Source of the DNA: an uncultured bacterium
GTDB taxonomy: Bacteria > Verrucomicrobiota > Kiritimatiellia > RFP12 > UBA1067
Direction of reading: 5' to 3'
Length of the DNA: 44,258 bases
NCBI GenBank assembly: GCA_902772905.1
Contig: CACYCL010000164.1
Span: forward strand, 1 to 44,258
Positions 8,215-37,936 of this stretch are shown here, one piece after another (the first letter of the stretch is position 1; each line of letters opens with the position of its first letter). Both the position numbers and the translations under genes were made by a program. Below the pieces are notes generated by a model, which saw only the letters and a program-made list of their open reading frames with translations, did no database searches and was not told the DNA's origin.

Positions 8215-9221
8215 TGGGGAGAAGCGCTCTCTGCGACATCTTCCAGGAAAATGAACCGATAGCCGTTTTCCGCCATCATGCGCGACATCACCGCGATCTT
8301 TTCTGCGTAGTCGCGCTGGTAGGCGACATAGTCTTGGAAGAAGTATTGCTCATGGTCGGAAAATACGAGGTACTCCCGTCCGAGCAGCTTTTCGGTGTCC
8401 GCGACCAGCGTCGGAACGTCAACCAGATTTAGGATGGGGGCATCACCGAAGAGGTGCTTGAAATTCATCCCGGTAACGTTGTCATGCACGTAAGAAAACG
8501 AGTTCTCCGTCGCGGATAGCTGCTCTGGCGACAAGTGATTGTATCCGCAGGCAGAGGACAGAATCGCATCGTCACGCGAATTGCGCGTAAAAAGAGCGGT
8601 TTCCGGCTTTCTGTTCGTTTCGAGGCGCATTGCGTGCCCGTACGGCAGACAACTGCGGTCGCCCGTGTACGCCCTCCGTATCCCCGCAGTGCATTCCATA
8701 AGCTTCACACCGCGGCTCTTCAGCGCTTCAACCCCCACCTTGCTCATCGGACTCCAGTGCGGCACTGCCGCTTGCGCGAACACGCCCTCGCCGGCAAACC
8801 TCTCGACCTCGCGGCGCTCGCGGTCAAACACCGACAGCACTCCCTCCGCATCCATGTTGATCCAGGGATAGTCCGGAAACTCTTGAAGGGAATGAAAACC
8901 CAGCTTCAGCCAGTCGCGGCTCGCCTGCCATTCGGCACAGTAGTCCGCAGGCACGTCCGCCAGTGTGAATTCGTCAACGCCATAATAGAAGTCGGTCCGC
9001 CAGAAGAGGTTGAGCTGCACCTTCAGCCCGTATCTCTCGTGGGCATCCTTCAGCGTCGCCAGAAACGGATGGCCGAAGATCGACCTCGGATGCGACCGTG
9101 CTATGTCGCGGAGCGTCCATATCGTGTCGTCGATGAAGAAGGAAGCGGCCTTCGTCCCATGCAGGGACGGGTTGCTTCTGATCTCGAATTCCGAAATAGA
9201 GGGGCCAAGTTCTGCGTTCAT
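8211..9221 (-). CDS. Hypothetical protein, possible polysaccharide-deacetylase (NodB-like) fold
   Basis: Coupled ORF within the operon; FFIDD, LKLGFHS, VPHW resemble CE4-type motifs; assignment tentative. Confidence 0.55.
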   Translation of the reverse strand: MNAELGPSISEFEIRSNPSLHGTKAASFFIDDTIWTLRDIARSHPRSIFGHPFLATLKDAHERYGLKVQLNLFWRTDFYYGVDEFTLADVPADYCAEWQASRDWLKLGFHSLQEFPDYPWINMDAEGVLSVFDRERREVERFAGEGVFAQAAVPHWSPMSKVGVEALKSRGVKLMECTAGIRRAYTGDRSCLPYGHAMRLETNRKPETALFTRNSRDDAILSSACGYNHLSPEQLSATENSFSYVHDNVTGMNFKHLFGDAPILNLVDVPTLVADTEKLLGREYLVFSDHEQYFFQDYVAYQRDYAEKIAVMSRMMAENGYRFIFLEDVAESASPQ

Positions 9222-9222
9222 C

Positions 9223-10182
9223 TCATTTCACCTTTCTCACGAAGCCAAGGGTGTCCAGTTCGGCAAAGAGTTCCCGATGCTCATCTACCGTCAAAGGCCG
9301 ACCGGCTGGCGCACGGGCTCCGCCACAGTCAATTCCAATGTACTTCATCACAGCCTTGGGCCAGCTGAAATTAGGCTTGCTCAGAATTAGTTCGACAAAC
9401 CGAACGCTCATGTCCTGCAATTTCGCGGCCTCGGCAAAACGATCGGCAGCTGCCAACGCACATATCTTCGAATACAGCCACGGCAGCATGTTGTCGGTCA
9501 TGCCAATGCAACCAGAAAAGACGCCAGTAGCCAACGCCGACAGAACCTGTTCATCGGCACCGGCAAAAAAGGCAACAGGCTTGTCGACTTTACGCCGAAG
9601 CGCCTGAACCGTCCAATACTGGTAGTTCGTGTACTTCATGCCCTTCACATTCGATATGTCGAAGAACTTGGCGTCGCGATCCGGAATGATGCTCTGCCCA
9701 AACGAATAGATCATGAACGGCAAGGATGTTGCGCCGGCAATCTGACGATAATGATCGTATGTGGCATCGAAGTTCTGCCCGAAGTAAACGGGCGCCGTCG
9801 AGGAAATCCAGTCAATGCCAATCTTCTCGGCATACTTGGCCAAGCCGACAGAATTCTGTGTCGCAATGCAGCCAACATGTGCTATGATTTTGCCTCGCCC
9901 CCTGTTTGCCTTAACCACCCGCGCCATAACAAGTTTACGCTCCTTCTCAGACAACTCAAGCCCCTCGCCCGTTCCCCCTGTGACATAGAAGCCGGAGATG
10001 CCGTTAACGAGACACCACTCGATCTCCCTCTCAATTGCTGATTCGTTGACACAACCATCCTTCTTAAAGGGTGTCCAAAGTGCCGCAAACGCACCAGACA
10101 TTCCAGCGAACTCCTTCCCATTTGGGACTGGAAGACGATTCTCTCGTATAAACAAAAGTTCCTCTTTACTGAGTTTGTTCAT
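9223..10182 (-). CDS. nanA: N-acetylneuraminate lyase / DHDPS family aldolase
   Basis: GFYVTGGTGEG, IAHVG, FMIY, KGMKYT (Schiff-base Lys); ATG at 10182 overlaps the SSS stop; sialidase and SSS context favours NanA. Confidence 0.75.
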   Translation of the reverse strand: MNKLSKEELLFIRENRLPVPNGKEFAGMSGAFAALWTPFKKDGCVNESAIEREIEWCLVNGISGFYVTGGTGEGLELSEKERKLVMARVVKANRGRGKIIAHVGCIATQNSVGLAKYAEKIGIDWISSTAPVYFGQNFDATYDHYRQIAGATSLPFMIYSFGQSIIPDRDAKFFDISNVKGMKYTNYQYWTVQALRRKVDKPVAFFAGADEQVLSALATGVFSGCIGMTDNMLPWLYSKICALAAADRFAEAAKLQDMSVRFVELILSKPNFSWPKAVMKYIGIDCGGARAPAGRPLTVDEHRELFAELDTLGFVRKVK

Positions 10183-26965: not shown

Positions 26966-27535
26966 TCAGAACCCAACGTTCACAATTGGAAAGAACTGGA
27001 GCTCGGCGTCACGAATGACGTTGACAACGCCAATCTGATACCCGTACATAGTCTCGCAGCGGTTAATAAGGCCGAACTGCAGGCCACGCGCCTCGCCAGC
27101 CGTGTTCACAAGACCCACCTGAACGCCGCGCACGTGCCCAGTCTCGTTCCAAAGGCCAGCCTGAACACCGCAGAAGTCGCAACCGCCTGCCGAGTTGTAC
27201 AAGCCAACCTGCACGCCTGAGATGTCGTCCTTCACATCGTTGCGCAGGACGTTCAGCATCAGACCTTCGAACGTGAGCGCACGACCCCAAAGCCCGATGT
27301 CAAAACCAGTCACGTTCTCTTGACGCGTCGAGAACGGAATCGTGAACCTTACACCAACGACATCCACCGACTCTGGGTATTCGCAAATGGCGACGAACGC
27401 TGGCCATACATTGCTTTCACGGCGGCGCTCTTCGCGCGGCTGTTGCGACTGTTCATCAATGCTGGGCACGATTTCCTGCGCCAACAGCGGCATTGCGAGC
27501 GCTGCGGATACGGCAAGCGAAAAGACTTTCTTCAT
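26966..27535 (-). CDS. Secreted protein with GxQxGLxN repeats (LA_2272-like surface repeat family)
   Basis: Signal peptide; GVQVGLYN, GVQAGLWN, GVQVGLVN, GLQFGLIN, GYQIGVVN; ends FFPIVNVGF. Confidence 0.75.
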   Translation of the reverse strand: MKKVFSLAVSAALAMPLLAQEIVPSIDEQSQQPREERRRESNVWPAFVAICEYPESVDVVGVRFTIPFSTRQENVTGFDIGLWGRALTFEGLMLNVLRNDVKDDISGVQVGLYNSAGGCDFCGVQAGLWNETGHVRGVQVGLVNTAGEARGLQFGLINRCETMYGYQIGVVNVIRDAELQFFPIVNVGF

Positions 27536-27567
27536 GTTGAATCCTCTTTAGCTGTTTTTGGTGGTTA

Positions 27568-27596
27568 ATTATATACTTTATTGGCTGAAAAATCAA
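27568..27596 (-). promoter_or_regulatory. sigma70-type promoter upstream of the 27535 gene run
   Basis: TTGATT, 17 nt, TATAAT in an AT-rich intergenic gap. Confidence 0.65.
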
Positions 27597-27606
27597 TCGG
27601 TGGCCG

Positions 27607-28107
27607 TCACTTTTCTACGACCGTCACCTTTTTGATCACTACGGCCGTTTCGGGCACGTTCTGATGTGGGCCGGCAAAGCCGGTCTTCACCTTGCCGATG
27701 GCGTCCACCACCGAAAGGCCGTCGGTAACCTCGCCGAATACCGCGTAACCAAAGCCCTGCTGCGTAGGATTCTGGAAATCGAGGAAGTCGTTGTCGACGA
27801 GGTTGATGAAGAACTGGCTCGTCGCGGAGTCGACGACCATAGTGCGAGCCATAGCTATCGTGCCGCGCTTGTTCTTCAGGCCATTCACCGCTTCGTTGCG
27901 GATCGGAGCGCGTGTAGGCTTCTGGTTCATGTCCTTCGTGAAGCCGCCGCCCTGTATCATGAACCCGTCTATCACGCGGTGAAAAATCGTCCCGTCATAA
28001 TGGCCGTCCTTCGCGTACTTCACGAAGTTCGCCACTGTTTCAGGCGCCTTGTCCGCATTGAGCTCCAGGGTGATTGTTCCCATCGTGGTCTCGATTGTCG
28101 CTTTCAT
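27607..28107 (-). CDS. ppiB: Cyclophilin-type peptidyl-prolyl cis-trans isomerase
   Basis: [42 protein letters not shown]; no signal peptide. Confidence 0.95.
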
Positions 28108-28189
28108 GTCGCGTATTATACCAAATTTCGTCCACGCTCGCCATCACCTACCAACAAAGGCTTCCTGGACGATGCGTTGCCTATATATA

Positions 28190-29374
28190 CTATGCAACAC
28201 AAGAACATTCACCACAATCAGGATGATACCTCTGGCAGTAGTCACGGTGAATCTGCAGCAGTCCCTGTATCAACAGACCATTGCCCGCATATACGGCAAC
28301 TGGATTGTGGTCGCGTCCGAAGAGTCGAAAGGCTGTCAGCCGCACGGGTTGCGAAACATCCTCCGGCGGAAGCCATTCGGGCGGCTCCGTCATGCGCTCT
28401 TCGGCCATTGCATAGGGCACCACTACGTTTGCCAGCACAGCCGCCGCACGTCCCCTTCCCATGCACCGCGCAATCAGCTCCCCGCCTGTGCACCCTTTTT
28501 GCCGCTGCTCCCCGCACATTGCGGACACCATGTCCCTGCATGACTTAGGAGAGAAATCCGAGGCATCGGCGAGTTCCATGGTCGGCGTAGCGGTGAACAC
28601 CGTCGCAGCATCGGCTAGTCTCCGTTCCGGCTGGTTGCACGGCCTCAGCCCCATGCGTTCCCAGTTCTCGAAACCTCCTGCCACAAGCAGTGCCTCCTTC
28701 GCGATGTCTGGCTCCCGGAGCAGATTGCCTATCGGGACGCGTTCGGCAATCCGGCGAAACTGCGACGCATTCCGCGAATAGCCAAGTGCCGTCATCACCT
28801 CTTCGTAAAACACCTGCCTGCGCCCAGCCGCTCCTTCGCAAAGCCGTCCGCAGATTCGCCGCGCCTTCATGTGAAGCCTGCGACGCCCAGCCGACGCCAA
28901 GACCTCATGCGCGAAGTCGGGGTCATCGGCCAGACGCTGCCTGCACGGGCGCTCGTCGAGCGGAAGGCGAGCGTATGGATAGGCCGACAGGTCGATCTGG
29001 TCGGGCGAGAACGATGCATCCTCCGACATGAATCGACCAAGCCAGATTGACACTGCGCCTGGCGGCAGGGTGGCCGGAACAGGTCCGCATCTCCAAGTGA
29101 CGTGCGCAATGACGTTCCTGTACTTTGGATCCGATCCATGTCCATGAATGTCCCAGTCCGACGGGCACAGATGTATCTCGACATCTCCAACGACACGCCG
29201 CCGTTCATGCCCGATCTCGATGACCGCGCCGAGGAAGTCCGGCCCTGCGCCAAGGTTCCACTCGCCAGGGCTGACTACAGTCACCTCGCTGCCCCGCCTT
29301 GTGTAGAGACGCCGTGGCCTGAACGCCGCATCGTACCATATCGCCTGGACGTGCCTCTCCGATACGCCGCCCAT
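28190..29374 (-). CDS. DUF2851 family protein
   Basis: PGEWNLGAGPDF, GDVEIH..SDW..HGH..DP.Y.NVIAHV; QGLLQIHRDYC...CGEC at the C-terminus. Confidence 0.85.
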   Translation of the reverse strand: MGGVSERHVQAIWYDAAFRPRRLYTRRGSEVTVVSPGEWNLGAGPDFLGAVIEIGHERRRVVGDVEIHLCPSDWDIHGHGSDPKYRNVIAHVTWRCGPVPATLPPGAVSIWLGRFMSEDASFSPDQIDLSAYPYARLPLDERPCRQRLADDPDFAHEVLASAGRRRLHMKARRICGRLCEGAAGRRQVFYEEVMTALGYSRNASQFRRIAERVPIGNLLREPDIAKEALLVAGGFENWERMGLRPCNQPERRLADAATVFTATPTMELADASDFSPKSCRDMVSAMCGEQRQKGCTGGELIARCMGRGRAAAVLANVVVPYAMAEERMTEPPEWLPPEDVSQPVRLTAFRLFGRDHNPVAVYAGNGLLIQGLLQIHRDYCQRYHPDCGECSCVA

Positions 29375-29383
29375 TGCCGCCCC

Positions 29384-30370
29384 TCAAGCCGCCTTTGCCG
29401 TCATGACGCGGTCGGCGATTTCCGCAGCCACTTCGGGATGTTCACGAAGGTATGCTATAGCCGCCAGATTCCCCTGCGCAAGCTGGCTGTCGCCGTACGA
29501 AAGCCAGCTGCCGCGCTTCTCGACTATGCCACGCGCAAGCGCCGCGTCGAGAATTGAACCCTCGCGTGAGATTCCGCATGAGTAGAGTATGTCGAACTCG
29601 GCCTCGGCAAACGGCGCCGCGACCTTGTTCTTTACGACCTTGACTCTTGTGCGATTGCCTATTACCTGTCCGGACGAGTCCTTGATTGCGCCTATGCGCT
29701 GCACCTGAAGGCGGCAGGTTGCATAGAACTTGAGCGCCTTGCCGCCAGGAGTGGTCTCGGGATTGCCGAACATCACGCCTATCTTGTCGCGCACCTGGTT
29801 AGTGAAGATGCAAAGCGTCCTCGTCTGCGCCATGGTCGCAGTCAGCTTGCGCATCGCCTGTGACATCAGCCTCGCCTGCAGCCCCACGTGGGCATCGCCT
29901 ATGTCGCCGTCGATCTCGGCCTGCGGCGTAAGCGCGGCGACGGAGTCGATGACAACCACGTCTACCGCGCCTGACTTCGCCAGCTGCTCGCATATCGTAA
30001 GCGCCTCCTCCCCCGAATTTGGCTGCGACACGACAAGTTCGTCGAGGTTGACGCCTATTTTCCTTGCATAAGCAGGATCAAGCGCATGTTCCGCGTCTAT
30101 GAACGCAGCCACGCCGCCCGCCTTCTGCGCATTCGCCACAACATGCAGGGCAAGCGTCGTCTTGCCAGACGACTCGTGTCCGTAACATTCTACGATTCTG
30201 CCACGCGGAAGCCCGCCTACGCCCAGTGCCATGTCAAGCGAAAGCGCACCTGTTGAAATGGACTCAACGGTTTTGTCGGCCGCGTCACCAAGACGCAGCA
30301 CGGCCATTTCGCCGAACTCCTTGCGTATGGACTTCATTACCTCGTCAAGCACCGTTGCAATCTTTCCCAT
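29384..30370 (-). CDS. recA: Recombinase RecA
   Basis: [72 protein letters not shown]. Confidence 0.99.
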
Positions 30371-30395
30371 TGCCTTGCCTCCTTTCTTCCTGATG

Positions 30396-30830
30396 TCAGT
30401 CCCACTTCACGAATCGACTGGGATTCGCGAAGAGGTTCACTTTCTCGATATGGTCCACGACAGGCCTTCCCCCGCTCGGCGTACCATATATCTCTATCAC
30501 GTCAAAGCGAAAGTCGCCGTGCCATCTGTTGGCGCGCCGCCATGCATTGCAGGCCCGCCGCAAGTTGGTTCGCTTCCGCCTGTCAATGCGAGAGAGCCTT
30601 CTCCCATACGGCGACATCGTGGCGTGCTGCTTCACCTCGACAAACACCATTGCGTCCGTCTTGGGATCCCATGCCACAAGGTCTATTTCCAGACGTCGGT
30701 CCTTGGCCACGGGGCAGCTGTTGCGGTCGATTATCTGGAATCCGGCGCGGCGAAGGTATTCCGCCGCGACATCCTCGCCCCAAACACCGTTCGCAACGCC
30801 GATGTTCGCCGAATCACGCCGCAGACGCAT
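30396..30830 (-). CDS. yraN: YraN family (UPF0102) PD-(D/E)XK nuclease
   Basis: [38 protein letters not shown]; ATG 30830 overlaps the upstream ORF. Confidence 0.9.
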
Positions 30831-31413
30831 TGCGATACCCCCTTTCACGTGCCTCGTACGCCGAGGTGTCGTGCGCTACAAGCATCGGGATGCCAAACGC
30901 CACGACGGACATGGAGCCCGCTATGGCCTCGCACAGTCCAACGGCCTCGGCTTGTGTGATTATGATGTGCCCATGCATTCCCTCGCCGCCATCTCGCGGG
31001 TTGCGGTAGACTTCAAGCGAATAGCCGGTTATAGGCTCGACGAGGTGGCGCAACTGTATTTTCGTTGCCGCACGCGATGTCTGGTGGTAGAGGCCGCGGT
31101 CGTCGTTGATTGACTCGCATTCTCCTCTGAACACCTGAAGAATCCTGCACAGGTCATTGAAGTCGAGCTTGACGCATATTGCATTCTCCCAGTCAAAGCG
31201 CGCGAACGTCGGAGACGCCCCCCTTCTGTCGCCTATCGCACACTGATTCGCAACGCGCATCATGATGCTGCCGTCTACGTTGTCATGCGCGGGATGCAGC
31301 TTCAGCTCCAACGCGCCGCCCGTGCCCTTTTGATTGGCGTGGTAGAATCTGAGCGTCGGCCTGTACTGGCCTAGAGCCGCTCCCTGACTGTTTCTCTCCT
31401 TGTTCGTTTCCAT
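30814..31413 (-). CDS. Hypothetical protein, putative Whirly-like ssDNA-binding protein
   Basis: AAGGAG RBS before ATG 31413, 199 aa; motif order resembles the plant Whirly domain (see findings); the CDS is well supported, the fold is inference. Confidence 0.6.
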   Translation of the reverse strand: METNKERNSQGAALGQYRPTLRFYHANQKGTGGALELKLHPAHDNVDGSIMMRVANQCAIGDRRGASPTFARFDWENAICVKLDFNDLCRILQVFRGECESINDDRGLYHQTSRAATKIQLRHLVEPITGYSLEVYRNPRDGGEGMHGHIIITQAEAVGLCEAIAGSMSVVAFGIPMLVAHDTSAYEARERGYRNASAA

Positions 31414-31475
31414 GTTTGCGTTCTCCTTTCTTTTCTTCGCAGTTGATGCACACTCCCGCCGACGCCGACAGCGAG

Positions 31476-33029
31476 TCACATCCAGAATGAATTCGCCTCG
31501 TCGTCGCAGCGACGGTAGTCGAGCGCGGCAAGAAGGTCGTCATCGCGCACACCCTCGGATCCTGCGAGATCCGCAAGGGTCCTCGCCACGCGCAGAACCT
31601 TGTCATAGGCGCGGGCAGAGAGGTTCAGCCGCTCAATCATGCGGACAAGCTTCTCGCGATCCTTGGCTGTAAAATGGCATACGTCCGCCAAATGCCGACT
31701 CCTGACCTGCGCATTGGTTCGCACGCCAGGCATGCCACGGTAGCGCTCTGCTTGAATTGCCCGTGCGCGAATCACCCTCTCGCGCATGGCTTCGCTCGAC
31801 TCCCCGGGATCCATGAGTGGAAGTTCCCTGGCATTGACCGACGGCACCTCGATCTGAATGTCTATTCTGTCCAGGACAGGCCCGGATACGCGCCCCTGAT
31901 ATTTCAGTATCGCCGTCGGAGAGCATCTGCACGCATGAGCCGCGTCGCCATACCAGCCGCATGGGCATGGGTTCATCGCGGCGACAAGCATGAACTCCGA
32001 CGGAAAGTCGTAGGCTGCCGCCGCGCGCGACACGCCGACGTGTCCGTCTTCGAGAGGCTGTCTCAAAACCTCCAGCGACTGACGCGGAAACTCGGCAAAC
32101 TCGTCCAGGAACAGCACGCCCCTGTGCGCAAGCGACACCTCGCCGGGAAGCGCGCGCATTCCGCCGCCGAGCAGGCCTATGGACGATACGGTGTGATGCG
32201 GCGCACGGAACGGCCGCCGCGTCACGAAGCGACCCGCGCCGGCCCCCTTCGCCTCGCCTGCCACTGAATGAATTCGCGACACTTCAAGCGCCTCGTCAAC
32301 CGTGAGCGGCGGCAATATGGACGGTATGCGACGCGCCAGCATTGTCTTGCCGGAGCCCGGCGATCCTATCATCAGTATGTTGTGGCCGCCGGCAACGGCG
32401 ACTTCGATGGCCTTGCGGGCACGCTCCTGCCCCTTCACATCGGAAAAGTCGTCCATCGCGCCGCAACCAGACGCAACAAGTCCGCCAAGGTCGGTATAGC
32501 GAGGCTCAATGGCCCGCTCGCCGTTCAAATACTGCACCGTCTCCTGCAATGTGCGCACAGGTATGACATCAATGCCGCCGACCACGCTGGCCTCATCTAC
32601 GTTTTCAATCGGCACTATGGCGGCACGTCGTCCAATGCGCTTCATTTCAAGTACAATCGGCAGTATGCCTCGCACGCGCCGCACCTCTCCGGAAAGCGAC
32701 AGCTCGCCGACGAACGCATACTCATCCAGATGTTCGTTGCTGATGCGCCCTGTGGCCTTCAAAAGACACACCGCTATCGGCAAATCGTATATCGGCCCCT
32801 CCTTCCGGACATCGGCGGGCGCGAGATTAACCGTAACGTCGAATTCCTTCCTCGATGCAAGCCCTTGGTTCTTGAGCGCCGTAGGAATCCTGTCCTTGGC
32901 CTCTTTTACCGCCGTATCCGGAAGCCCGACAATTGCGAACTGCGACGTGCCGACGGCAGAATACACCTCTATCTCGACCGTTCGCGCGTCGACTCCGTTC
33001 ACAGCTCCAGAGTAGCATTTTGCAAGCAT
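31476..33029 (-). CDS. comM: ComM/YifB Mg-chelatase-like AAA+ helicase
   Basis: IVGLPDTAVKE, TVNLAPADVRKEG..YDLPIA, GSPGSGKT, PFRAPHHT, PGEVSLAHRGVLFLDE, AAMNPCPCG, DRIDI, LSARAYDKVLRVARTLADL. Confidence 0.96.
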   Translation of the reverse strand: MLAKCYSGAVNGVDARTVEIEVYSAVGTSQFAIVGLPDTAVKEAKDRIPTALKNQGLASRKEFDVTVNLAPADVRKEGPIYDLPIAVCLLKATGRISNEHLDEYAFVGELSLSGEVRRVRGILPIVLEMKRIGRRAAIVPIENVDEASVVGGIDVIPVRTLQETVQYLNGERAIEPRYTDLGGLVASGCGAMDDFSDVKGQERARKAIEVAVAGGHNILMIGSPGSGKTMLARRIPSILPPLTVDEALEVSRIHSVAGEAKGAGAGRFVTRRPFRAPHHTVSSIGLLGGGMRALPGEVSLAHRGVLFLDEFAEFPRQSLEVLRQPLEDGHVGVSRAAAAYDFPSEFMLVAAMNPCPCGWYGDAAHACRCSPTAILKYQGRVSGPVLDRIDIQIEVPSVNARELPLMDPGESSEAMRERVIRARAIQAERYRGMPGVRTNAQVRSRHLADVCHFTAKDREKLVRMIERLNLSARAYDKVLRVARTLADLAGSEGVRDDDLLAALDYRRCDDEANSFWM

Positions 33030-33068
33030 CTTTTCGTTCCTTTCCGCCTTCGTGCTGAAGACACGGAT

Positions 33069-33077
33069 ATTATCGCA
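33069..33077 (-). promoter_or_regulatory. Extended -10 element of the comM operon promoter
   Basis: TGCGATAAT about 40 nt upstream of the comM ATG; no consensus -35, whose position is occupied by the CTTAAG array. Confidence 0.6.
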
Positions 33078-33090
33078 GAAAAAACGAAAA

Positions 33091-33134
33091 GATACCTTAA
33101 GATTACCTTAAGATTTACCTTAAGATTTCTTAAG
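33091..33134. repeat. Four phased CTTAAG boxes (putative operator array)
   Basis: gatacCTTAAGattacCTTAAGatttacCTTAAGatttCTTAAG; boxes start at 33096, 33107, 33119, 33129. Confidence 0.9.
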
Positions 33135-33202
33135 GTTCAGATCGGAAATTTTACACAGCAACCGAAGCCGCAGCCAATGTTTACGGACCTGCGGCGACAC
33201 CC

Positions 33203-35518
33203 CTATGCGAAAAACTCGGCAACGCGCAAAAGCAACTCGTCCCTTTCGGATACGGTTCTCACTGTCGCGGGAATGGATTTTCGGAATGTAGCGCCGTAGT
33301 TCTTAGTCACTATTCGCGGATCGGATATGACTACCACTCCACGATCCGACCTAGTGCGAATCAGCCGCCCAAAACCCTGGCGAAAGCGAACCACCGCCTC
33401 TGGCAGCGCGTAGTCCCGGAAAGAGCTGCCGCCCGAGCGGTCTATCATCTCCGACCTCGCCTCCACAATGGGATCACCGACCTGCGCAAAGGGAAGACGC
33501 GCCAGCACAACGCATGAAAGCGCCTCGCCTGCGACATCCACACCCTCCCAGAAACTCTGCGCCCCGAACACGATTACCGGCCTGTCGCCCATTTCATCGT
33601 CGCATGAACGCCGCAGTTCAGCGGTCATAGACTCACGCGACATGCCCTCGCCCTGCACCAGGAGCCGCATTCCGTCGCCTTCCAGCGCAGGCCTCGCATG
33701 CGCCGCTACGGCATTCATCATCTCATAGCTCGTAAACAGCACAAGCGCGCGCCCGTGCGTAACGGCGAACAGGTCACGCATCAGCGCCGCGAGCGCCTCG
33801 GCGTAGCCAGACGGATTCGCGGACGGATCTGGCAGACAGTCGGGCGCAAGCACAAGCGCCTGGCGGAAGTAGTCGAACGGACTTGCCGCCGTCATCATCC
33901 TGAACCGCTCGTCGCACCCAAGCCTACGAGCCATGTACGCGAAGTCAGAGCCTACCCGCAGTGTAGCCGAGCAAAGCACTACCGAGTCCTTCACGTCGTA
34001 GAACATCCGCTTCAAGTCACCCGCCACCGACAGCGGCGCGGCGACAAGCCGCACATAAGAGGGACGATTCTCGGCGCGTACGCGTTCCGCCCAGTAGGCG
34101 TGAGTGTCCTTCTCTCCGCTTATCACGAAGTTCGCCTCGTTTGCGAAATCCACCAGCGACTCCGCGATCCCGCAGACCTGCGCGGAGAGATCGCCGAGGT
34201 AATTGAGCTCGCCATCTGGCACGGCGCCGTCCAATGTGTCGCGCAAGGAATGCAGAAGGTTGACCATCGACGCAAGGCGGGCCTCCAGCCCCGCCTGCGC
34301 ACGGCGGAGGCGCGTCTCGTCCCATGCGTCCGGCTCGTATGGCTTGAAGAGCCCGTGAAGCGAGAACTCGCGCACCAGCCTATGCCCGTCCACGCCGTGC
34401 ACAATGCGGTAGCGGCACACTCTGCGGTCCTTCGCAGGTCTAAGCAGAAGAGCCGCCACGTCGAAGAGTTCATCCGCTGCGTCTACTATGCCGACGACAA
34501 GCCGCGACGCCTCGCCGAGCGCACGCGCGACAGCCTCTGCCGCCGGGCCACCGGCGAAGGCGCCCTTCTGGAACTGGCGCTCAACGGCCGCCAGCACTCC
34601 TCCCGGACGCGTACGCTTGCCGCGCCCTCGCCTGACAAGGCGGTTCAGTATGCGCGCAAGCGCTGGCATGGAAAGCTCGCAGCCGAGATAGTCCGTCGCA
34701 ATCGACTCCAAGTTGTGCGCTTCGTCCATCACTATGCGTCCATACGCAGGGAGTATGCCGCTGCCGGGCGAAGTTGCCTCGGCAAGAACCAACGCGTGGT
34801 TTACCACTACGAGATGCGCTTCCGACGCGGCCTTGCGGGCCTTGTAGACGAAGCAGCGAGAGTAGTATGGGCATCTCCTTCCGCCACATTCCTCGCCCGG
34901 GCACGTCAGCAGCGAACGCGGCAGCCCTTCGTAGCCGTCGAGGTCGCCGTCTGCCGTGTGCCGAAGCCAGTCTATGAATCTTGGCACCAATGTCTGCTCT
35001 TCTGATGACATTGTCCAGAAGCCAGGCGCGAAGAAGTCGCCGACAGCCCTCAGGCAGAGATAGTTGGCACGCCCCTTGAGAAGCGCGACCCTGAACTTGT
35101 GCGCATCAGCGCCAATGACGGCAAGCGCACGCGGTATGTCGGAACCGATGAGCTGGGACTGAAGATTGCGCGTGGCGGTCGAGACGATCACAGGCGTATC
35201 GTTCGTCCATGCCCACAACATTGACGGCACCAGGTAGGCCAGCGACTTGCCCACGCCCGTCCCAGCTTCTATCATGAGATGCTCGCGCGCATTGAACGCC
35301 GACGCAACGGCGCCGGTCATGTCAATCTGCCCGGGCCGTTCCTCATAGCCTGGAAGCGAGCCGAGAGTGCCGCCTCGCCTAAGGTGCATGCGCACTGCCT
35401 CCACGTCGAGGCGCGAGCAGTCCTCGTGCGCAGGCAGGTGGCGCTGCCGCGAGGGCGGGGATATCTCCGGTATGAAGTCGGCCCAGCCCGGATTGTCTAT
35501 GAACTGCGCAGGAGTCAC
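33203..35518 (-). CDS. dinG: DinG/YoaA family Fe-S DNA helicase
   Basis: YEERPGQ, EAGTGVGKSLAYL, LKGRANYLC, C..C....CP...C, DEAHNL, SATL, FWEGVDV, RLPF, QGFGRLIR. Confidence 0.93.
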   Translation of the reverse strand: MTPAQFIDNPGWADFIPEISPPSRQRHLPAHEDCSRLDVEAVRMHLRRGGTLGSLPGYEERPGQIDMTGAVASAFNAREHLMIEAGTGVGKSLAYLVPSMLWAWTNDTPVIVSTATRNLQSQLIGSDIPRALAVIGADAHKFRVALLKGRANYLCLRAVGDFFAPGFWTMSSEEQTLVPRFIDWLRHTADGDLDGYEGLPRSLLTCPGEECGGRRCPYYSRCFVYKARKAASEAHLVVVNHALVLAEATSPGSGILPAYGRIVMDEAHNLESIATDYLGCELSMPALARILNRLVRRGRGKRTRPGGVLAAVERQFQKGAFAGGPAAEAVARALGEASRLVVGIVDAADELFDVAALLLRPAKDRRVCRYRIVHGVDGHRLVREFSLHGLFKPYEPDAWDETRLRRAQAGLEARLASMVNLLHSLRDTLDGAVPDGELNYLGDLSAQVCGIAESLVDFANEANFVISGEKDTHAYWAERVRAENRPSYVRLVAAPLSVAGDLKRMFYDVKDSVVLCSATLRVGSDFAYMARRLGCDERFRMMTAASPFDYFRQALVLAPDCLPDPSANPSGYAEALAALMRDLFAVTHGRALVLFTSYEMMNAVAAHARPALEGDGMRLLVQGEGMSRESMTAELRRSCDDEMGDRPVIVFGAQSFWEGVDVAGEALSCVVLARLPFAQVGDPIVEARSEMIDRSGGSSFRDYALPEAVVRFRQGFGRLIRTRSDRGVVVISDPRIVTKNYGATFRKSIPATVRTVSERDELLLRVAEFFA

Positions 35519-35916
35519 ATGCGCAACTCTGCGGCAAGCGCCTCAAGCGCCTTCATGTCGCCCTTCGAGTTTTCGAAGGCAAGCGGGTCGCCGCTCCAGC
35601 GCGGCACTATGTGGAAGTGGATGTGCCGCACCGTCTGACCGGCGGCCTCTCCGTTGTTCTGAAGAATGTTGAAGCCGTCACAGCCGAGTTTGGCCTTTAT
35701 GTGCGCGGCTATCTTCTTGACGCGCACGATCAGCTCGGCGAGCGTGGCGTCGTCAGCTTCAATTAGGTTTGCCGCATGGCCCTTAGGTATGACGAGCGTA
35801 TGGCCCTTGGCAAATGGGTTGATGTCAAGGTACGCAAGAACCAGATCGTCTTCGTACACCTTGAAACTCGGAATCTCGCCAGCGGCGATCGCACAGAATA
35901 TGCAGTCGTTTTTCAT
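35515..35916 (-). CDS. HIT family nucleotide hydrolase
   Basis: DCIFC, DINP..GHTLVIPK, NNGEAAGQTVRHIHFHIVPR. Confidence 0.95.
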   Translation of the reverse strand: MKNDCIFCAIAAGEIPSFKVYEDDLVLAYLDINPFAKGHTLVIPKGHAANLIEADDATLAELIVRVKKIAAHIKAKLGCDGFNILQNNGEAAGQTVRHIHFHIVPRWSGDPLAFENSKGDMKALEALAAELRM

Positions 35917-35920
35917 GATC

Positions 35921-37936
35921 TTACTTCAATGTGTCTTGTGCATCTGCTGTATCTGCATGTTTTGCCTCCTGAAGCCCTCTCCAATGCGATACCCGTTGCA
36001 CAATGCGCCGTATCGGCGCAAGCGGGATCTCGCACCAGCCATGCGGGCGAACGGAGAGATACGCCCAGTCGCGCAGCGTCTCGTGCCCTGCCGAAAGGAA
36101 TTCATGCAGAATCGACGGCCTGTCTCCGTATATGACGAAGTCTGCAATGCCCTCGCCGTAGAACCGTTTTGCGAGCTGGCGAATGGTGTAGTTGTGGGAA
36201 TGCTCGACATGTGCGTCGGGGCAATATGCTATCTTCACCGGATCTTTCGCCAAGCGAGAATTCTGCCACGCCCACTCGACGTCCTCGGAATACTGGATCT
36301 TCTCGTCAAACGGAGTTTCTAGAAGGTTGCGCTTCCACGTTGCGGAACTGGCCAGGGAGAAGAAAAAGCGCCACGTCGCCTGGACCTTTCCGTCGCCGAA
36401 TGCGCGTTCGTTGTCCTTGCGCACAAGAGACTGGGCATTGGCGCGGGGCAACTGGTTCGCAAACGCGAACACGCGACACGATCCTGAAAGAAGCGGCCTG
36501 ACTAGTTCGGCCAGCCAGCGAGAATCCAGCGGAACGGAGTCGGAGTTGTTGAAAACCACGATGTCCCCCTTCGCCTCACGGACAAGCGCATTCAGCGACT
36601 TTCCAGGCTTGTACGCGCCGGACGGCCGCTCGACAAACCTCACTGGGTACTTCGCCGCCACTTCACGCGTCCGGTCTTTGGAATTGTCGTCGCACACAAT
36701 CACCTCAAATGGAGGCGGCCACTGCGAGAATATCCCAGCGAGCGTTCGCCCTATCAGCACTTCGTCGTTGCACGCCCTAACAAGAACGCTGATGCGCGGC
36801 CATTCCTCCGGCGGCTCGCCCTTCAGTCGCGCAACAAGTTCGCCACGAGCAGTCTCAAGCCTGGACACGAGCGCCGCATGCGCCTTTGCGTGCACGTCAT
36901 CCCATTCGCCGCGATTCCCAAGCGCGGCAATGACATGCTCCGCAACTTTCGCCCAGTCGCAGTCGTACACGCTTCCCTCAACGGTGCGACCGAAGTTGGA
37001 GAGCCAGTTGGCGAGCTTGGAGCCGCGTGCAATTCCAAGGCCTGGAGTGCCAACGTTCGCCGCGAGAATCAACAGGTGAAGACGGCTCGACAGGACAACA
37101 TCGCACTGCGAAGCCGCCTTCATGACCGCCTCTGGCGTAGAACCTGCGATGCACTCGACGCCAAGCCCCTCCATCAGAGCGCGGTCCGTCTTTGGATTCA
37201 TCGGAATGCCGACTACCCCTGCACCAGACGCACGAACGGCGGCGACCATCCTCTTGAGCCCGTCAAGGTCCGCGACCTGCCGTTGCGTCGAAATGCAAAG
37301 GCCGAGAGTGCGAGGGTGCGAGGAAGTGGGCGAACGAGGGAGAGGTGGGACGGGCGACAGCAATATCGCCGTGTCGGCGGCAACCTCTGCATTCTTGAAT
37401 CCCAGCGAGGCGAGCATTGCCGCGCTCTGCGGATCGCGCAGCCAAACGCCTCTGCAACAAGGCATAACCTCGGCAATGCGCCGCGCGAGCCTTGCTCGAA
37501 GCCTGCGCTCGTACCATCCGACAAGCCCGAGGCAGCCCAGCGCAAGGCGTCGCCTGCCACGAGCCCTGAAGAACGCCGGATTCAGCTCGTCGTCCATTCC
37601 GACACCCCATACATAGGTCTGGACACCAGCCTTCTGCGCCGTTTCAAGCAGGTCGAGTGCGACGTGCGGATAGTCTGAAAGCCCTGTTGCACCGCACCAA
37701 ATGTATGCGTCATGGGTGCGAACAACATCCGCAAAGCCGCCGATGTCATATCCAGCGAAACCAAACGGAGGCACAACATCCACATCAAGCAATCCGGCAG
37801 TGGATTCGTCTGCCGTTGCGACTGTCAGCCTCACGCCTGGCAGCGACTCCTTTAGCATCTTCACGACGCCGGCGACAATCGCCTCGTCGCCTATGTTGTC
37901 GCACCCGAGCGGTATGCCTCCGAGAAGTATCCTCAT
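35921..37936 (-). CDS. Polysaccharide pyruvyl transferase fused to a GT2 glycosyltransferase
   Basis: N-half NIGDEAI, WLRD..S, ADTA, SSRLHLLILA; C-half ISVLVRACND, VCDDNSKDRT, NSD, SEDVEWA, VEHSHNY; ATG 37936 overlaps the upstream stop. Confidence 0.85.
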   Translation of the reverse strand: MRILLGGIPLGCDNIGDEAIVAGVVKMLKESLPGVRLTVATADESTAGLLDVDVVPPFGFAGYDIGGFADVVRTHDAYIWCGATGLSDYPHVALDLLETAQKAGVQTYVWGVGMDDELNPAFFRARGRRRLALGCLGLVGWYERRLRARLARRIAEVMPCCRGVWLRDPQSAAMLASLGFKNAEVAADTAILLSPVPPLPRSPTSSHPRTLGLCISTQRQVADLDGLKRMVAAVRASGAGVVGIPMNPKTDRALMEGLGVECIAGSTPEAVMKAASQCDVVLSSRLHLLILAANVGTPGLGIARGSKLANWLSNFGRTVEGSVYDCDWAKVAEHVIAALGNRGEWDDVHAKAHAALVSRLETARGELVARLKGEPPEEWPRISVLVRACNDEVLIGRTLAGIFSQWPPPFEVIVCDDNSKDRTREVAAKYPVRFVERPSGAYKPGKSLNALVREAKGDIVVFNNSDSVPLDSRWLAELVRPLLSGSCRVFAFANQLPRANAQSLVRKDNERAFGDGKVQATWRFFFSLASSATWKRNLLETPFDEKIQYSEDVEWAWQNSRLAKDPVKIAYCPDAHVEHSHNYTIRQLAKRFYGEGIADFVIYGDRPSILHEFLSAGHETLRDWAYLSVRPHGWCEIPLAPIRRIVQRVSHWRGLQEAKHADTADAQDTLK

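Follow-up and report, generated by a model that had tools for sequence, protein, structure and literature searches.

The window analysed here is a stretch of 44,258 nt (contig CACYCL010000164.1, positions 1-44,258 of the forward strand, assembly GCA_902772905.1) from an uncultured, gut-type bacterium of the lineage Verrucomicrobiota; Kiritimatiellia; RFP12; UBA1067. It carries five adjacent genes in the order comM-why-yraN-recA-DUF2851, where why is the name used here for a previously unnamed open reading frame (ORF). The cluster points to a specialised machine for the recombination of single-stranded DNA (ssDNA). We give an even chance to the reading that it is a ComM-YraN D-loop module for imported ssDNA, accompanied by a tetrameric Whirly-type ssDNA-binding accessory, by a RecA paralog private to the genus and by a DUF2851 protein linked to it in the family.

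The five ORFs occupy positions 28190-33029 and all lie in the same direction on the minus strand (Table 1). Read from the sequence with the chosen ATG starts, the intergenic gaps are 62, -17, 25 and 9 nt, so that yraN begins 17 nt inside the 3′ end of why. A purine-rich ribosome-binding stretch of the GGAG/GGGG type was present just 5′ of three of the starts inspected. The ATG chosen for why gives a length in keeping with the homologues, most of which have 196-201 aa. The terminator consensus scan of positions 27000-36000 gave 6 terminator-like sites, compared with 8.0 (standard deviation 3.2) in shuffles. The sole minus-strand site inside the cluster (32782-32769) is a 5-pair stem within comM, and none was found in any intergenic gap. 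An earlier note on this DNA had described five co-oriented genes with these gaps and no internal terminator, and the ORFs, the sequence and the terminator scan confirmed that description. The comM/why, why/yraN and yraN/recA junctions were spanned by short contigs of low depth from other public runs, which possibly derive from the same sample and are not independent. No contig from these runs bridged the recA/DUF2851 junction with 31 letters on each side.

Table 1. Features of the comM-why-yraN-recA-DUF2851 cluster, in positions of the window.
Feature	Positions	Strand	Length	Assignment
comM	31476-33029	-	517 aa	Mg-chelatase-like AAA+ ATPase of the YifB family; helicase for branch migration in natural transformation
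why (unnamed ORF)	30814-31413	-	199 aa from ATG at 31413	Whirly-fold protein (predicted), putative ssDNA-binding accessory; no curated family
yraN (UPF0102)	30396-30830	-	144 aa from ATG at 30830	PD-(D/E)XK endonuclease partnering ComM
recA paralog	29384-30370	-	328 aa, full length	
DUF2851	28190-29374	-	394 aa	putative restriction-endonuclease-like N-terminal domain and glycosylase-like helical domain
comM leader repeats	33089..33140	-		four CTTAAG direct repeats, period ~11 bp; likely control region of the cluster

The products of comM, yraN, recA and DUF2851 each passed a curated threshold, in agreement with the names given to them earlier. ComM matched TIGR00368 (5.9e-174, 579.3 bits, cut-off 362.4) over residues 6-506, and its ChlI, Mg_chelatase and Mg_chelatase_C domains (PF13541, PF01078, PF13335) were all above their cut-offs. 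YraN matched PF02021 (6.8e-19, 68.5 bits, cut-off 23.6). The NCBIfam YraN models also matched it, under their equivalog cut-offs (best 76.9 vs 109). Stretches of E-I-D and V-E-V-K can be read by eye in its translation and were taken as the putative PD-(D/E)XK catalytic residues. The two genes are one gene apart and point in the same direction. Passages of Hardy et al. (PNAS 2026, PMC13663708) describe YraN as a PD-(D/E)XK ssDNA endonuclease needed for transformation in Legionella, Acinetobacter and Vibrio. According to the same passages, YraN interacts and co-evolves with ComM, the helicase/nuclease pair has been established experimentally, and comM and yraN lie <10 genes apart in 34% of the genomes having both (PMC13663708). 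The partnership of ComM and YraN in transformation, which the earlier note had stated, holds in this part of the source. The comM-yraN core of the cluster is thus an already known system. ComM-YraN has only recently been described as a widespread D-loop resolution system of natural transformation, and the extra parts found here (why, the RecA paralog and DUF2851) are concrete candidates for its missing accessory factors.

The why protein had no match in Pfam (E ≤ 0.01), NCBIfam or PHROG. Of 706 candidates from a 90%-clustered collection, 565 proteins belonged to its family at E ≤ 0.001, and clustering at 50% identity left 375 representatives. Among the homologues, no source name other than 'hypothetical protein [Kiritimatiellae bacterium]' was seen. 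The AlphaFold2 model, built from a 64-sequence alignment, had a predicted local distance difference test score (pLDDT) of 91.5 and a predicted template modelling score (pTM) of 0.81. It consists of four strands and a helix, twice over, followed by one more helix that many family members do without. The first repeat comprises strands 20-25, 33-40, 49-59 and 79-83 and helix 85-95, and the second comprises strands 108-111, 115-124, 130-139 and 146-152 and helix 154-173. Foldseek against the PDB gave 23 matches at E ≤ 0.001. Ranks 1-14 were all plant Whirly structures (PBF-2, WHY1, WHY2, WHY3 and StWhy2), with a probability of 1.00, E values of 3.8e-7 to 5.4e-6, target-normalised template modelling scores of 0.60-0.79 and identities of 13-16%. 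They were followed by trypanosome MRP1/MRP2 and, more weakly, by PUR-alpha. In the predicted structure, the unnamed ORF has the Whirly fold, and the fold predictions uphold that side of the 'Whirly-like' label which the earlier note had given it from sequence alone.

The sequence signal of the why family is weak but points in the same direction as the fold. Weak sub-threshold matches to PF08536 were found in 11 of 64 family members (best E 0.0013). The family profile gave weak matches to MRP1 and StWhy2 (E 0.14-0.18). The near-invariant F-D-W of the family was aligned to Y-D-W of StWhy2, at an E of 0.17 only. The neighbours of why in the ESM Atlas include clusters with PF08536 in 12% of their members.

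Prediction of a four-copy complex of why gave a score of 0.91, compared with 0.25 for the best control, with the two helices as the interface. The contacts of the runs agreed by at least 71%, and the partner pLDDT was at least 80. In the calibration of the complex score, 20 of 30 proteins with a solved one-chain pair attained the mark, as did 1 of 23 solved as single chains; the why complex used four copies, unlike this calibration, and solved Whirly tetramers exist, so its pass may reflect likeness. We therefore treat the predicted why homotetramer as likeness to Whirly rather than proof. The fold and the gene neighbourhood together suggest that why binds ssDNA. In 5 of 271 members (P0160, P0173, P0193, P0211 and P0257), the C-terminus is an acidic stretch followed by PF or IF. 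Such an end recalls the C-terminal tip of bacterial SSB, which recruits partner proteins. A search of proteins with 350-2000 aa, weak as evidence, gave no fused form of why, and one 350-aa member (P0181) has an extension without a Pfam domain.

In the open-access literature, we found no account of a two-repeat Whirly family in bacteria with ties to comM, yraN, recA and a second ssb. A bacterial Whirly-fold family of at least 375 clusters, linked genetically to RecA, SSB, ComM and YraN, offers a simpler system for questions on Whirly recombination and reopens the question of where Whirly proteins originated. A plant review describes Whirlies as plant-specific in the part seen (PMC9070903), and, according to a passage of another source, members of the Whirly/Pur-alpha family occur in three domains of life (PMC13392464). 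We consider it possible, if rather doubtful, that the why proteins of the Kiritimatiellia are true homologues of plant Whirly and act as dedicated recombination mediators, as tetramers that pass ssDNA to RecA (in the window even to the private paralog) and work together with ComM-YraN or, in other families, with a second SSB. If this were true, the plant Whirly-RecA partnership would have a bacterial counterpart, or even a bacterial origin, and natural transformation in the group would rely on a further, third type of ssDNA-binding factor in addition to SSB and DprA.

The RecA of the cluster matched TIGR02012 (9.4e-150, 498.3 bits, cut-off 325.3). Two recA genes were found in the assembly, one at C119:6695-7480 (L085; 436 bits) and the copy in the window (422.6 bits). 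The two proteins were 81.4% identical over 317 aa, and the C119 recA was 90% identical to the canonical recA of the sister genome G371. Judged by these identities and by the tree described below, the C119 copy is the canonical recA and the window copy is an extra, faster-evolving paralog. The earlier note had taken the recA of the cluster for the recA of the cell under co-regulation, which does not hold. The flanks of the C119 recA had nothing in common with the recA flanks of two sister genomes. A single recA is usual in the family: among 41 sampled genomes, two complete recA matches were present in the window's genome only. G414 and G420 were rejected as two-recA genomes; their two matches were fragments at contig ends. 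No description of a RecA paralog embedded in a comM-yraN cluster was found in the open-access literature.

Within the sample, the extra recA copy is confined to one genus, and its form varies among the genomes. G371 has a highly diverged RecA-like gene of 238 aa after yraN (L052:5882-6598, minus strand), which covers only positions 3-218 of Pfam RecA. Its canonical recA is located 4.3 kb further downstream on the same strand and contig, behind sialidase-like, transporter and Maf genes. In G341, the operon copy is the only recA detected (359.8 bits) and is strongly diverged. In G329, recA is on another contig.

The recA tree contained 34 rows, namely 3 operon and 31 canonical copies; nine further matches without a returned locus were left out. 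The three operon copies were placed on one side of a branch with an ultrafast bootstrap of 85 and a Shimodaira-Hasegawa-like approximate likelihood ratio of 95. Their end branches were 0.13, 0.53 and 2.6, compared with 0.04-0.13 for the canonical copies of the genus. A total of 178 columns were invariant in the 31 canonical RecAs, of which 6 were changed in the window copy, 38 in G341 and 93 in G371, with its missing part counted. The Walker A motif reads GHESSGKT in the window paralog and GQESSGKT in the canonical copies, and the Q-to-H change is common to two operon copies. We favour one old recA duplication in the ancestor of the genus, as the tree suggests. The approximately unbiased (AU) test does not reject a tree in which the window paralog pairs with its own canonical copy (p 0.32) or falls among the canonical copies of the genus (p 0.34), and long branches may attract each other.

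The assembly is estimated to be 89.7% complete with 4.3% contamination. Apart from recA, no ORF of C119 had a close copy elsewhere in the assembly. The contig of the window (C164) gave one further match only (62% identity, on C139). This speaks against two strains sharing the bin. Contamination of the bin as the source of the second recA is unlikely because C119 and C164 are nearly without duplicates and G371 has both copies on one contig.

DUF2851 matched PF11013 (2.2e-37, 129.4 bits, cut-off 25) over positions 1-210 of 375 only. Its AlphaFold2 model (pLDDT 84, pTM 0.63) showed an N-terminal domain rich in strands, followed by a helical domain, and Foldseek gave no match to it at E ≤ 0.001. 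VIA-align against 48,161 chains gave Z values of 9.7 (root mean square deviation 4.4, 204 aligned) and 8.7 to archaeal AGOG and of 8.1 to endonuclease III-3, where a Z under ~13 is common for helical proteins. Helix-hairpin-helix DNA glycosylases made up 20 of the first 26 rows and covered residues ~148-394. All six rows over residues 1-140 were restriction-endonuclease-like nucleases (NucS, LlaBIII, MspJI, AF1548, VRR_NUC and a type III CRISPR nuclease), with Z values of 4.1-4.9. In 21 diverse homologues (24-38% identity), G-P-D46-F, E66, H77, H79, H91, R166, K170, N202 and C390 were invariant, and C144, C380 and C387 were present in 20 of 21. The resulting Cys...Cys-x6-Cys-x2-Cys set could be a zinc or iron-sulfur cluster site. 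It may resemble the cluster loop of endonuclease III. Of the 401 genomes sampled from the phylum, 322 had DUF2851, as did Bacteroides thetaiotaomicron among the controls. The gene is thus not specific to the lineage as had been proposed. By the loci sampled outside the window's family, its linkage to comM is a trait of that family only. The open-access literature held no description of a DNA-metabolism context for DUF2851, and the cluster provides the first such connection that can be tested.

A match to why was found in 44 of 401 evenly sampled genomes of the phylum, with the window's genome counted, and all but one of the 44 belong to the window's class. It was present in 16 of 17 genomes of the window's family and in 0 of 18 genomes of a sister family of the same order. 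A total of 43 why loci were fetched with up to 7 kb on each side and searched with the window's proteins and with DprA, ComEC and SSB of the window's genome. Two short partial matches were left out, and the split copy of G341 was taken as one locus. The loci come from related genomes, and the counts are not independent. Near why, ssb was found in 16 loci, yraN in 8, comM in 7, DUF2851 in 5, comEC in 3, recA in 2 and dprA in 1.

Within the window's family, the linkage persists in rearranged forms. In the genus of the window (g1), G329 has comM-why-yraN-DUF2851 with recA outside the cluster, and G371 has comM-why-yraN followed by the truncated RecA. The order in genus g5 (L043:6892-12393, L045) is why-DUF2851-comM-comEC-yraN, with overlaps or gaps of up to ~80 nt. 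In genus g3, two genomes have why-yraN and a further genome has comM-comEC-DUF2851. In 9 of 15 genomes of the family, why is accompanied inside the fetched 7 kb by one or more of comM, yraN, DUF2851 and comEC. Three different gene orders retain the same genes, and selection on their linkage is therefore argued, among genomes that are related.

Outside the family, why is located 3′ of ssb on the same strand, at a distance of 30-579 nt, in 16 of 27 loci (L051, L054, L056, L060, L061 and L064-L074). All five ssb-why genomes checked have two ssb genes, and the copy beside why lies upstream of it. The window's genome had one ssb match. The wider context of why in other families is thus a second ssb paralog and not comM. 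Two gene clusters, c3 and c1 (for example L068:8346-9176 and 9173-9916), are conserved and divergent from ssb-why in 9 and 12 loci, respectively. Neither they nor the downstream cluster c15 had a match in Pfam or NCBIfam. Cluster c2 beside ssb-why was rejected as a real gene, being the antisense shadow of ssb.

Of the genes for DNA uptake and processing, dprA (241 bits) and comEC (176 bits) were found over their cut-offs on other contigs of the window's genome. Six matches to the T2SSE family of ATPases were found, three of them over the whole profile and three over its first 270-290 positions only; we interpret the three partial ones as PilT-like. The genome has four secretin loci and a ComF-like frame (81.5 bits), which is below the strict cut-off. 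The sole HHH_3 (ComEA-type) match was rejected as comEA; it is a Tex protein of 762 aa (C183, L077:862-3147), which a plain count of family matches would have mistaken for comEA. The position of comEC within the linked cluster of the sister genera g5 and g3 favours transformation over repair only, and this linkage in two genera is the main evidence for transformation. The cluster provides genomic grounds for testing competence in the Kiritimatiellia, a poorly studied group of gut and sediment.

We propose that ComM-YraN would extend and resolve the D-loop made by RecA as imported ssDNA is integrated in natural transformation. The lineage would have inserted a tetrameric Whirly-fold protein into the ComM-YraN pair. 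This protein may coat or organise ssDNA, either the incoming or the displaced strand, and may be a cognate accessory to RecA, ComM or YraN, as plant Whirly is to organellar RecA. A duplicated recA would have been captured behind yraN in the window's genus. DUF2851, a conserved and possibly metal-binding protein with putative nuclease-like and glycosylase-like parts, is linked to the module in the window's family.

Transcription of the cluster probably starts from a promoter with phased 11-bp repeats 5′ of comM. A spacer of 173 nt separates comM from the upstream gene and holds a promoter-like site (33177-33148). The CTTAAG repeats are located between this site and a -10-like hexamer (GATAAT) that precedes the start of comM by ~40 nt. 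Tandem Repeats Finder gave a period of 11 and 3.5 copies for this leader. The phased array is unique in the 2.36 Mb assembly, where one other CTTAAG pair was found (on C71) and period-11 repeats with 2.8 or more copies are limited to 4 sites. The array occurs only upstream of comM, and no regulon can therefore be derived from it. The other three genomes of the genus (L034, L044 and L052) have 3-4 period-11 repeats at the same position 5′ of comM, likewise just before a -10-like hexamer, and no two of the four genomes share the repeat sequence. This suggests an activator site, which could be fast-evolving, or phased DNA bending. An SOS box pattern for the phylum was matched exactly nowhere in the genome, and no convincing site was seen 5′ of the canonical recA; this result is uninformative.

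The gene immediately upstream of the cluster, on the same strand, encodes a DinG/YoaA-like iron-sulfur helicase (33203-35518, minus strand). Downstream, a cyclophilin gene follows DUF2851 after 82 nt (spacer 28108-28189). It has its own extended -10-like TGgTATAAT only ~8 nt before the ATG, which would yield a near-leaderless transcript. A further ORF of 189 aa (26966-27535, minus strand) has a signal-peptide-like start and repeated GVQxGL motifs, and belongs to no Pfam family.

Several results weigh against a dedicated transformation module. The main grounds for caution are that why is linked to ssb elsewhere, that the fate of the recA copy varies and that comEA was not found in the 89.7%-complete assembly. 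Across the class, ssb and not comM is the commonest neighbour of why, which may at its core serve to handle ssDNA in general. The cluster of G329 lacks the recA paralog, which is truncated in G371 and strongly diverged in G341; the paralog is not obligatory and may be a decaying duplicate. Of the 43 related loci, that of G341, from the window's genus, alone repeats the exact order of the five genes, and what is kept within the family is the linkage and not the order. No partner gene was found near why in 6 of 15 genomes of the family, one of them on a 5-kb contig. Outside the family, DUF2851 had no comM, yraN, recA, comEC, dprA, ssb or why within ~6 kb in 20 of 20 loci. The why family remains below the curated Pfam Whirly threshold (PF08536), so that the 'Whirly-like' label does not extend to the Pfam family at its threshold. 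Co-transcription of the five genes is suggested only by their spacing. ComM, YraN and DprA are also widespread in bacteria that have never been shown to transform.

A different reading is general genome maintenance, in which a why tetramer at breaks or stalled forks steers accurate repair by RecA, and ComM, YraN, RecA and DUF2851 serve recombinational repair. The frequent position of why beside ssb and the failure to find comEA fit this reading, as do the repair helicase gene next to the cluster and the possible likeness of DUF2851 to nucleases and base-excision glycosylases. Plant Whirly proteins modulate break repair in organelles, according to a passage of PMC3245945. Against it, the adjacency of the helicase gene is seen in the window only and at 0 of the 43 related loci. 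In the species tested, the recombination in which YraN and ComM take part is specific to transformation (PMC13663708, in the passages cited above), and comEC lies inside the linked cluster of genera g5 and g3. We consider this explanation somewhat unlikely.

The functional unit could also be smaller, namely comM-why-yraN or comM-yraN only, with recA and DUF2851 as passengers brought in by local duplication and genome compaction. The range of the recA copy from absent to truncated among the four genomes of the genus agrees with this, and so do the single recurrence of the exact order and the unlinked DUF2851 outside the family. The canonical recA of G371, lying on the same strand 4.3 kb downstream, fits local duplication. 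However, the window paralog keeps 172 of 178 invariant positions and is thus not decaying in the window, DUF2851 remains beside comM in three arrangements in three genera, and the gaps of 25 and 9 nt leave scant space for separate promoters. We regard the passenger explanation as unlikely. An anti-phage or mobile system, in which a Whirly-type nucleic-acid sensor would work with PD-(D/E)XK nucleases, is highly improbable: why is translationally coupled to the nuclease gene yraN, and Shedu has sPC4/Whirly-fold sensor domains fused to a nuclease (in the part seen of bioRxiv 10.1101/2023.08.10.552793), but the PADLOC models matched none of why, yraN and DUF2851 and gave comM and recA no more than weak P-loop matches. 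By tblastn, collections of 50,697 phage and 72,556 plasmid records contained no relative of why. The genes are single-copy with why in nearly all sampled genomes of the family, and no integrase or mobile hallmark was noticed among the neighbours examined.

The module proposed here can be compared with five known systems. Shedu likewise joins a PD-(D/E)XK-type nuclease to a bacterial domain of the Whirly superfamily. In the passages seen, it is a defence system with a single dimerising repeat fused to a DUF4263 nuclease (bioRxiv 10.1101/2023.08.10.552793), whereas why is a free-standing two-repeat protein beside YraN without a PADLOC match. Myxococcus xanthus has two recA genes of unequal divergence in one genome, recA1 and recA2, as a passage of PMC7029660 describes. 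In the present case, the extra copy lies inside a comM-yraN cluster, is found in one genus only and has differing fates in sister genomes.

A second SSB paralog of the competence type is represented by SsbB of transformable Firmicutes. The likeness is that of a putative dedicated ssDNA binder encoded beside transformation or recombination genes, and elsewhere why is found 3′ of a second ssb. In contrast to SsbB, why has a predicted Whirly fold and not an oligonucleotide/oligosaccharide-binding (OB) fold, and the window's genome has a single ssb match.

The ComM-YraN system itself is shared in that both genes are colocalised (<10 genes) and co-oriented and that dprA, comEC and recA are present in the genome (PMC13663708, in the passages cited above). 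It differs here in the insertion of why between comM and yraN, overlapping yraN, and in the recA paralog and DUF2851 that follow. The abstract, section 5 and colocalisation passages of Hardy et al. make no mention of such an insertion or extension (PMC13663708).

Plant Whirly proteins (PBF-2/p24, WHY1-3 and StWhy2) share with why the predicted two-repeat fold of four strands plus a helix and, in the predicted why tetramer, helix-mediated contacts. Unlike them, why is bacterial and chromosomal, has 13-16% identity to them, falls below the Pfam threshold and is only a putative ssDNA binder. The company of a recA gene parallels the stimulation of organellar, bacterial-type RecA by Whirly reported in the part seen of bioRxiv 10.64898/2026.10.24.761589, where WHY1 and WHY3 raised the strand-exchange product of RecA1 from <10% to 41-51% in vitro. 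By analogy, Whirly of plant organelles is the closest functional precedent for an accessory role of why.

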